From positions 5,476 to 69,475 of the IMG/VR virus record IMGVR_UViG_3300014205_007777: DNA of 64,000 bases; one strand, 5' to 3'. Position numbers and translations under genes: made by a program. The stretch is from a virus (lineage: Duplodnaviria; Caudoviricetes). This document shows, piece after piece, positions 58,621 to 59,955 of this stretch (position 1 is its first letter; every line of letters begins with the position of its first letter). A model generated the notes under the pieces. That model worked only from the letters and a program-made list of their open reading frames with translations, did not search any database and was not told the DNA's origin.

Positions 58621-59076
58621 TTAAGACCTCCAATTTTGGGCGAATTCCTTGAAGTTTTCCGGTTCTATCATATAGATAGCATACGATGAATTTTCTTTTA
58701 AGGTCGGTAAATCCAACACGACATATCTTTGAATTGTGCCTCTCCCTTGTTTCCCAATCTTAGGAATATCCCTACGTACTGCGAAATATGCTTGTCCGTT
58801 TGGTTTTAATATCTTTCGTATGTTCTCAATTATAGACCCTTGCTCTTCCTCTGTAACTACATTCAAAACATAGATACAAGTAATAGTATCGAATTTACCC
58901 TCTGGCATTTGAGGTCTGTAATACGGATCATAACACTCCATACCAAACCAGCAACCCCTCCCGGAGCCAAAATCAAATGCTCGGCCTTTGATATAGTTAT
59001 TATCATGAAGCCACTTTAAAGGTTCTGGTGGCTCTTTCCGGGATATAGCGGTTTGATAACCAGTCGGGAATTCCAT
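58621..59076 (-). CDS. Class I SAM-dependent methyltransferase with C-terminal NFKEFAQNWRS tag
   Basis: AFDFGSGRG, YDPYY, FDTITCIYVLNVV; start moved to ATG 59076. Confidence 0.8.
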   Translation of the reverse strand: MEFPTGYQTAISRKEPPEPLKWLHDNNYIKGRAFDFGSGRGCWFGMECYDPYYRPQMPEGKFDTITCIYVLNVVTEEEQGSIIENIRKILKPNGQAYFAVRRDIPKIGKQGRGTIQRYVVLDLPTLKENSSYAIYMIEPENFKEFAQNWRS

Positions 59077-59077
59077 T

Positions 59078-59653
59078 TTACCTCCAATTCTCCGCAAACT
59101 CTTTAAAATTAGTCGTTAAATCGGGGTATTCATCAAGTACTTTCCTCGGTACGTTTTTACCTTCTCTTAGGGCATTGATAATAAAGGGAAGGTGTGCCCT
59201 TTCTAAATTACGTGGTATGTAAATAAACTCGTGCGGGTCTCCGTAAGTCATAAGCTCATCTGGATAGACATGTTTTGAGTAGATTATATACTTACCACCG
59301 GGTATATTAAATTCGCCGTGCTCAGAAACGTACTTTTGAGATTCACTGACGTAGGAGCCCGGTATAATATCACCGACATCACTGGCACGGTAGACTGTTA
59401 TCAATTTACCTTGTTTTATATACGGTATCAAATATAGGGAGTTCATTATTCCTGTCGAATGTGCCCATCCTTTACCTAGTACTTCATTCAATCTGTCGTC
59501 GTCGTAATTAGCTAGGTCCGCTAGAGTCTCATACTCATCACGTCGCCAGTTAAATACCATCTTCGGTGTCTTTGAAGATCCTCCGGGAGGAACAGGGAAT
59601 TCCCAGTTTCGAAATTCCTCTTTAGTCATCTGCCACGGTTCTTTCATCTCCAA
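59078..59653 (-). CDS. Polyvalent-protein-type domain (ADP-ribosyltransferase-like) with C-terminal NFKEFAENWR tag
   Basis: KEPWQMTKEEF; ITVYRA...PGSYVSES.KY...HG...SKHVYPDEL...GDPHEFIY. Confidence 0.55.
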   Translation of the reverse strand: MEMKEPWQMTKEEFRNWEFPVPPGGSSKTPKMVFNWRRDEYETLADLANYDDDRLNEVLGKGWAHSTGIMNSLYLIPYIKQGKLITVYRASDVGDIIPGSYVSESQKYVSEHGEFNIPGGKYIIYSKHVYPDELMTYGDPHEFIYIPRNLERAHLPFIINALREGKNVPRKVLDEYPDLTTNFKEFAENWR

Positions 59654-59955
59654 TTCTCCGCAAACTCTTTGAAATTCTCTACCTCCGCGGCACCGTTTTC
59701 CAAGAATTTGGTTTCCTCGGGATCCAGTGTCTCAATCAATCTTAAAAGTTCGCCAATATGAACTCGTTCTTCATTCGATATACTACGCAGTACCTTTATA
59801 ACTAAAGGATTATCCGTAGCATTTGAGTGTGTCACATATAGGCTCGCGGCGTCTTCCTCTGCGGCTAAATCTAGTCTTAATGCTTTAACAAGGTCGTCTT
59901 TACTCATGGGGTTAGTCTCTTTTATACCAGGAAACGGGTCAGTAAAGTTAGGCAT
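59644..59955 (-). CDS. Ferritin-like (rubrerythrin/encapsulin-cargo-type) protein with C-terminal NFKEFAENWR tag
   Basis: ALRLDLAAEEDAASLY...VLRSISNEERVHIGE di-iron motifs. Confidence 0.85.
   Translation of the reverse strand: MPNFTDPFPGIKETNPMSKDDLVKALRLDLAAEEDAASLYVTHSNATDNPLVIKVLRSISNEERVHIGELLRLIETLDPEETKFLENGAAEVENFKEFAENWR

Follow-up and report, generated by a model that had tools for sequence, protein, structure and literature searches.

Three tightly packed genes on the minus strand, at positions 58,621 to 59,955 of a 64,000-base window (the whole stretch of DNA analysed), open a long operon after a 180-base intergenic gap, and their products end in nearly the same ten residues, referred to below as the NF tag. 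The window belongs to the IMG/VR record IMGVR_UViG_3300014205_007777, a viral genome of 69,475 bp with direct terminal repeats and a completeness of 100% according to CheckV. The first gene (59644-59955) codes for a 103-aa homologue of encapsulated ferritin (EncFtn) ending in VENFKEFAENWR, where the tag NFKEFAENWR occupies residues 94-103 (copy 1, 59647-59676, minus strand). The second (59078-59647, starting with the ATG at 59647) codes for a 189-aa protein which begins with MKEPWQMTKEE and ends in LTTNFKEFAENWR, with the same decapeptide at residues 180-189 (copy 2, 59081-59110, minus strand). The third (58621-59076, ATG at 59076) codes for a putative 151-aa class-I S-adenosylmethionine-dependent methyltransferase with the motif FDFGSGRG; it ends in PENFKEFAQNWRS and carries the variant NFKEFAQNWRS (copy 3, 58624-58656, minus strand).

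That three consecutive enzymes share a C-terminal tag had been proposed in an earlier model-made reading of these letters (the sequence-only reading), and our analysis confirms it. The likeness among the three proteins starts at the asparagine of the tag, with none upstream. When all 69,475 bp of the genome are translated in six frames, the patterns FKEF and F..[FY][ASV]..W[RK] have three matches each, all of them at these C-termini. Every synonymous difference listed in that reading is present as well (AAT/AAC, TTC/TTT, AAA/AAG, GAG/GAA, GCG/GCC and AGA/AGG).

Copies 1 and 2 differ at 2 of their 30 bases, and copy 3 differs from copy 1 by seven synonymous changes and one non-synonymous change. 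Two more DNA copies are available from L012, a syntenic metagenome contig with about 70-78% nucleotide identity. Across the five copies the wobble positions vary, while codon positions 1 and 2 are almost invariant. The most divergent pairs differ by 7 synonymous changes and 1 non-synonymous change, with roughly 4 sites counted as synonymous and 26 as non-synonymous (Nei-Gojobori; binomial p ~5e-06). Since the changes between copies are mostly synonymous, selection acts on the tag peptide. A natural variant strain from one public metagenome run has TTC>TTT in copy 1; the public-run contigs compared are mostly identical low-depth fragments. Sequencing runs containing this genome come from landfill or groundwater sites, with no RNA run listed among them.

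Further carriers of the tag are 17 ferritin orthologues (65-80% identical, one of them the L012 protein) and two other proteins, P0022 and P0023, giving 22 instances together with the three in the window; all close relatives are metagenomic fragments. The tag is thus present in relatives and conserved as a peptide in the 17 orthologues and both other carriers, where the sequence-only reading had left room for conservation of the DNA only or for absence from relatives. All 22 instances form the extreme C-terminus of their protein. F2 and W9 are found in 22 out of 22. Position 5 holds F in 21 instances and Y in 1; A, S and V alternate at position 6, R and K at position 10, and N, D and S at position 1. 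The remaining positions are variable: K/E/M/Q/R at position 3, E/S/T/Q at 4, E/Q/K/D/G at 7 and N/G/D/K/S/R at 8. The consensus can be written as [N/D/S]-F-x-x-[F/Y]-[A/S/V]-x-x-W-[R/K], with at most one residue between it and the stop codon. The tag has the features of a short linear motif: it is short, terminal, portable between unrelated proteins and under selection at the peptide level, and a few fixed hydrophobic positions alternate with spacers that vary. The NF tag is a peptide-selected, portable C-terminal motif.

The end of the tag has a second function in this operon. At two junctions the tag codons TGG-AGG form the Shine-Dalgarno sequence, located 5 or 7 bases from the ATG of the next gene. 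The third junction is arranged differently: the TGA stop shares bases with the following ATG, and a GGAG derived from GCG-GAG lies 8 bases upstream. The sequence-only reading was correct in stating that the last codons of the tag supply the Shine-Dalgarno sequence of the following gene, and that this may account for WR but not for NFKEFA: the overlap accounts for a part of W-R and for none of F2, F5 and A6. The peptide could therefore be regarded as a by-product of a nucleic-acid element, either a 30-base cassette for translational coupling or ribosome binding, or a junction at which gene cassettes recombine. The near identity of copies 1 and 2 would agree with this, as would the swapped protein body between conserved N- and C-terminal modules in L012 described below. 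However, variation at wobble positions with constancy of codon positions 1 and 2 has largely refuted it already. What is conserved over the 22 instances is a set of hydrophobic residues and not a contiguous string of bases, the Shine-Dalgarno overlap is confined to W-R, and the distance from tag to stop varies (0 or 1 residue). We consider a nucleic-acid origin of the pattern close to negligible.

The fixed residues are spaced at i, i+3/4 and i+7 with free spacers between them, which fits one face of a short helix. In the AlphaFold2 model of the 189-aa protein the tag is part of a terminal helix (residues 175-188), with a mean pLDDT of 64 for the last block, whereas most of the protein scores above 90. 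For the tag, the hydrophobic moment is 0.59 versus 0.35 for shuffled sequences, and 9% of the shuffles reach 0.59, so the difference is not significant. A helix with F, F, A and W on one face could also serve as a membrane anchor on the inner face of a viral lipid membrane. At about ten residues it would be short for this, its net charge is near zero or negative, and its hydrophobic moment does not stand out from the shuffles; such an anchor appears quite improbable.

The most informative carrier is the first one. The sequence-only reading called its product ferritin-like, which is correct, and it can be assigned more precisely to EncFtn. It matches the Pfam Rubrerythrin family (9.2e-06), and its residues 12-94 align to PDB entries 5n5e (Pyrococcus furiosus EncFtn, 2.8e-12), 2e0z (P. 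furiosus EncFtn-encapsulin fusion), and 7s8t and 7s5c (Myxococcus xanthus EncC and EncB). Residues E33, E63, H66 and Y40 are invariant in the 18 EncFtn orthologues of the viral clade; we take them to be the ferroxidase ligand positions, going by the numbering of R. rubrum EncFtn. The NF tag follows without a linker, its first residue (94) being the last one of the domain that aligns, and it occupies the tail in 18 out of 18 members of the viral clade.

Distant cellular EncFtn homologues have the same domain followed by a linker of about 15-40 residues and then by T(I/V)GSL(K/R). This tail is present in most of the 80 cellular homologues found in species-representative genomes. It corresponds to the encapsulin targeting peptide, whose consensus is L/F-x-V/I-x-x-L/I, typically TVGSL or TIGSL (PMC11202242). 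In both cellular loci tested, a Linocin_M18 shell gene immediately follows the ferritin gene (2e-63 and 3e-75). A third type of tail, KFP(K/R)LxGVG(L/I), characterises a small sister clade (P0043, P0044, P0052, P0063 and P0073). P0044 is encoded on a 70,465-bp contig of a Dehalococcoidales metagenome-assembled genome, and the size of this contig suggests a related element. The KFPKLxGVG pattern has one match in IMG/VR, an unrelated one; a scan of GTDB genomes gave cellular EncFtn only.

Thus, one enzyme family carries three different tails at one position, and for one of these tails the role as an address is established by experiment. No other observation argues more strongly for the NF tag being an address as well. 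Judging from the alignments, the NF tag takes the place of the encapsulin targeting peptide on the virus-encoded EncFtn. The proposal of a C-terminal loading signal made in the sequence-only reading is supported in part, indirectly but genuinely, as the tag stands at the position of the encapsulin cargo peptide of EncFtn. One orthologue, P0025 (117 aa, 81-kb contig), has tandem tags, ENFRRFTGNYSRLP followed by DFKEFVKDWRH. Eight other IMG/VR contigs have EncFtn-like genes without the NF tag; the neighbours of these genes gave patchy matches to structural genes, too weak to use. The viral ferritin had no match among GenBank phages.

The second carrier, the 189-aa protein, has no sequence match in Pfam, PHROGs or PDB. 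Its AlphaFold model, based on 23 homologues, is confident (pLDDT 92.5), and all fold matches are weak (Foldseek E >= 0.3; VIA Z <= 3.9). Many of these weak matches belong to the ADP-ribosyltransferase (ART) superfamily: Tpt1/KptA, Arr, Scabin, ParT, Rhs ART toxins, and the A chains of heat-labile enterotoxin (LT) and pertussis toxin. The earlier ART-like assignment is thus weakly supported, by hints from the predicted fold and by no sequence match in Pfam or PDB, and should be taken as a hint and not as a finding.

The 189-aa domain is also found outside the tagged setting. In eight out of nine IMG/VR loci with a homologue it lies inside a single open reading frame (ORF) of 1225-3482 aa, with Pro/Lys-rich linkers on both flanks and no NF tag. 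Such a multi-domain architecture is that of the polyvalent proteins of Iyer et al., 2017 (PMC5512222). Most homologues of the domain stop at ...EYPDL or YPDL and have no tag. P0022 and P0023 begin with MKEPWQMTKEE like the 189-aa protein and have in common with it a stretch of some 40 residues at the C-terminus (H..F..AL.EGK.VP..VL..YP.L-TNFK.FA.NWR), while their middle domains differ. The part of this stretch ahead of the tag looks like a C-terminal helper module, H..FI..AL.EGK.VP..VL..YP.L (residues 148-179; 59111-59206, minus strand), as defined by the alignment with P0022 and P0023 and with positions 5897-6436 of L012. P0023 occupies in L012 the exact place of the 189-aa gene here. L012 has no methyltransferase gene, and its ferritin ends in NFKEFAESWKR. 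Gene content between the conserved ends appears, from this sequence comparison, to turn over.

The tag is therefore modular, because the differing bodies of P0022 and P0023 carry it and most homologues of the 189-aa domain do not. It is found on at least five protein bodies: EncFtn, the 189-aa domain, the methyltransferase, P0022 and P0023. The middle regions of P0022 and P0023 match nothing in Pfam at E <= 0.01. P0022 has a GNAT-like QGHGIG motif and P0023 a ParB-like NG..H..RR..AA..G stretch, both domain types being typical of polyvalent proteins. When the last 42 residues of the 189-aa protein served as query in a region-restricted protein search, the query itself was the single match.

Two observations concern N-termini in this family. 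The 33 bases encoding MKEPWQMTKEE (59615-59647 in the window) recur in landfill and groundwater contigs (runs X3-X5) between dissimilar flanks, apparently inside longer linker-rich ORFs. In another IMG/VR virus, L020, three genes (6412-7431, 9887-10516 and 11527-12576) all begin with MSNPGPRKVKEPAPPNRKP; one of them codes for a homologue of the 189-aa domain. The common start looks like an independent shared N-terminal tag system.

The third carrier matches Pfam families Methyltransf_11, 12, 23 and 25 and phrog_24759. Methyltransf_11 is the single Pfam family passing the cut-off, so the methyltransferase call of the sequence-only reading stands, though weakly. No relatives of this protein were found in IMG/VR.

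Downstream, the last tagged gene is translationally coupled to a gene for a 61-aa four-cysteine protein (58434-58619, minus strand), which is kept at the same position in L012 (44% identity) and is a possible adaptor. Next in the operon is a gene without a tag (56951-58429, minus strand) coding for a 492-aa protein with ArdC-N and zincin-type metallopeptidase domains (Pfam ArdcN 1.8e-09; phrog_7245 and phrog_87). The pairing of ArdC-N and zincin is a typical core of polyvalent proteins (PMC5512222). The operon also encodes about ten proteins with another short tag, the N-terminal YPH tag. Both tags occur in this genome and in L012, never on one protein, so the idea that the NF tag complements the YPH tag is plausible. 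A promoter and terminator scan of the tagged operon gave nothing above shuffled controls. The gene set of the operon resembles that of virion-packaged polyvalent proteins (PMC5512222).

We propose that the NF tag is a portable docking helix which directs effectors made as separate proteins to a container built by the virus, most likely the virion during assembly, and regard this reading as evenly poised between right and wrong. The tag would probably form an amphipathic helix of two to three turns with F2, F5/A6 and W9 on one face, and would dock the enzymes at one common receptor in the container. The ferroxidase and the anti-defence or host-modifying enzymes could then accompany the genome, a result that other viruses may reach equally by combining such domains in a single giant polyvalent protein. 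Support for docking comes from the tandem tags of P0025, from the low-confidence terminal helix in the AlphaFold2 model and from the fixed hydrophobic positions, together with the selection on the peptide, the modularity of the tag, the exchanged address on EncFtn and the setting in the operon.

The main rival to docking in a container is that the tag tethers the three enzymes to a soluble hub, such as the ArdC-N/zincin protein, the 61-aa cysteine protein or a host factor, so that a non-covalent equivalent of a polyvalent protein would assemble in the cytoplasm or on DNA entering the cell. Adaptors are often encoded next to their clients, and the genes of both candidate hubs directly follow the tagged genes here and in L012. 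The covalent fusion of the 189-aa domain to other effector domains in other viruses also fits. However, a hub leaves unexplained why a compartment-targeting peptide was swapped on EncFtn, and in encapsulin iron storage the product of EncFtn needs an enclosing shell. We consider the hub unlikely, though worth keeping in view.

The zincin peptidase encoded two genes downstream of the tagged genes brings in another possibility, close to the protease-recognition signal suggested in the sequence-only reading. The tag may be a C-terminal degron or a protease-recognition signal, used for timed degradation or for trimming by a protease, be it the zincin or papain-like peptidase of the operon or one of the host. 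Shortness and portability are common to C-terminal degrons and this tag. To our knowledge, however, the tag is unlike the known non-polar C-terminal degrons. The tandem tags of P0025 and the exchange for an encapsulin address fit binding better than destruction, and a protease would have nothing to release beyond the tag itself. The proposed protease-recognition signal thus found no support, and this explanation as a whole seems improbable.

Returning to docking in a virus-built container, several results weigh against it. A search of all 69,475 bp of the record for the encapsulin family (Linocin_M18, PF04454) detected no such gene, although it did find matches in the control genomes; this is a test at the sequence level, which a very divergent HK97 fold could escape. 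The ORFs submitted to Pfam and PHROGs (the large ORFs of the presumed structural block) gave no match to a portal, terminase or capsid family. The capsid candidate, a 254-aa protein (17457-18218) modelled with an N-terminal helical part and a jelly-roll-like sandwich (pLDDT 90), is predicted to be jelly-roll-like and not HK97. It has 53 metagenomic cluster representatives and belongs to no PHROG or Pfam family. The best match of the beta sandwich formed by its C-terminal 150 residues is the SPV1 major capsid protein (Z 6.6, birnavirus VP2 also being listed), a score in the range where unrelated sandwiches also score. Without an encapsulin shell gene and with a jelly-roll-like candidate in its stead, the analogy with encapsulins cannot be literal. 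No receptor was found, the search for a partner being one complex prediction of the EncFtn tail (residues 70-103) with the 254-aa candidate and the 61-aa protein; its ipSAE of 0.00/0.01 counts neither for nor against. The operon is located a few kb from the genome end, which could suit early expression from incoming DNA as well as it suits packaging late in infection. A part of the W-R conservation may lie at the DNA level, given the Shine-Dalgarno overlap, and the tag is, as far as the sequence searches reach, restricted to a narrow lineage.

Two IMG/VR records bear on the width of this lineage. They contain members of the 254-aa protein family (41% identity) and have neither the NF tag nor the YPH tag, ferritin or 189-aa domain. 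The tags and the set of cargo genes are therefore specific to a narrower lineage than the capsid candidate.

Combining these elements, we speculate that a tailless jelly-roll-type virus of anaerobic Chloroflexota might use encapsulin-like addressing with two orthogonal tags, N-terminal YPH and C-terminal NF, for loading a ferroxidase and split "polyvalent" anti-defence enzymes into its particle. The EncFtn gene would have come from an encapsulin operon of a cell, a swap of ten residues giving its product a new address, and cargo loading by an address tag would have evolved independently of the HK97 shell lineage. Taken as a whole, this scenario is on the doubtful side.

Among known systems, the closest is the encapsulated ferritin-like cargo of encapsulins with its targeting peptide, such as M. 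xanthus EncB and EncC (7s5c and 7s8t; PMC11202242). Both have a short C-terminal peptide in the same place after the EncFtn domain of the same enzyme family, portable between unrelated cargo proteins, and the viral carrier is an EncFtn-type ferroxidase with the conserved Glu, Glu-x-x-His and Tyr positions. Unlike the encapsulin peptide, the NF tag is unrelated to L/F-x-V/I-x-x-L/I, is predicted to be helical and lacks the disordered linker of 10-40 residues. Its carrier is encoded in a virus record and not in a cell, and sequence search detects no HK97-fold shell gene in this genome.

The resemblance of the FKEF core to the T4 capsid-targeting motif, which the sequence-only reading mentioned as a possible coincidence, amounts at most to convergence. 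The shared aromatic-polar-E-F-(I/A)-(A)-E pattern is, we assume, superficial. The T4 capsid-targeting sequence is removed by the prohead protease; no T4-type scaffold, prohead protease or protease site was identified for the present virus, and there are no HK97-type head genes among the ORFs tested. The two signals are alike as conserved addresses of about ten residues common to diverse proteins of the anti-defence type, those of T4 being packed in the head and injected. The T4 sequence stands at the N-terminus, its target being the scaffolding core of an HK97-type head (PMC3012670), whereas the NF tag is C-terminal in 22 out of 22 instances.

Polyvalent proteins share with this operon the kinds of domains: ArdC-N, zincin peptidase, methyltransferase and, weakly, an ART-like one. 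Their covalent fusion is thought to let the domains accompany the genome (PMC5512222). Here, in contrast, each domain is an ORF of its own, with its own stop, Shine-Dalgarno sequence and start, and a short tag (N-terminal YPH or C-terminal NF) stands in place of covalent linkage. The domains of polyvalent proteins described in PMC5512222 do not include encapsulated ferritin (ferritin has 0 mentions).

C-terminal cargo-addressing peptides and N-terminal capsid-targeting sequences are already known. In the literature searched, we found no description of the NF sequence, its helical character, its use on split effectors of the polyvalent type or its presence without recognisable HK97 head genes. 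Should the tag be a true loading signal, it would offer a minimal ten-residue handle for finding the cargo of the particle of an uncultured virus, and viruses would be able to re-address a cellular nanocompartment enzyme by tail exchange alone. Such a reading also provides a testable explanation for how separate small proteins could deliver the functions of giant polyvalent proteins. The tails TIGSLK, NFKEFAENWR and KFPKLxGVGL on one enzyme family constitute a natural experiment on tag-receptor specificity. Given its receptor, a short helical tag could become an encapsulation tool.

Scanning of metagenomes with a DNA pattern for the tag gave 11 matches, of which L009 and L012 are the only true relatives; the others, including an integrase-like NFKVFAENWY, are chance or unrelated matches. 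Two matches in IMG/VR, one N-terminal (L001) and one internal (L002), come from unrelated contexts. The former is at 2306-2332 of IMGVR_UViG_3300008450_000054, an unrelated virus with 33% GC, where MDNFKEFAENW forms the N-terminus of a small membrane protein, before the membrane helix. It is probably a coincidence, with a rough chance expectation of about 0.1-0.5 in IMG/VR.

Elsewhere in the window, positions 1049-2203 hold an IS605-family OrfB/TnpB gene (with a Cas12f-like TNB domain) inside the virus genome. A perfect 33-base tandem repeat of 3.7 copies (63878-64000) reaches the right end of the genome record and may be part of the terminal repeat, or of an origin or packaging region.

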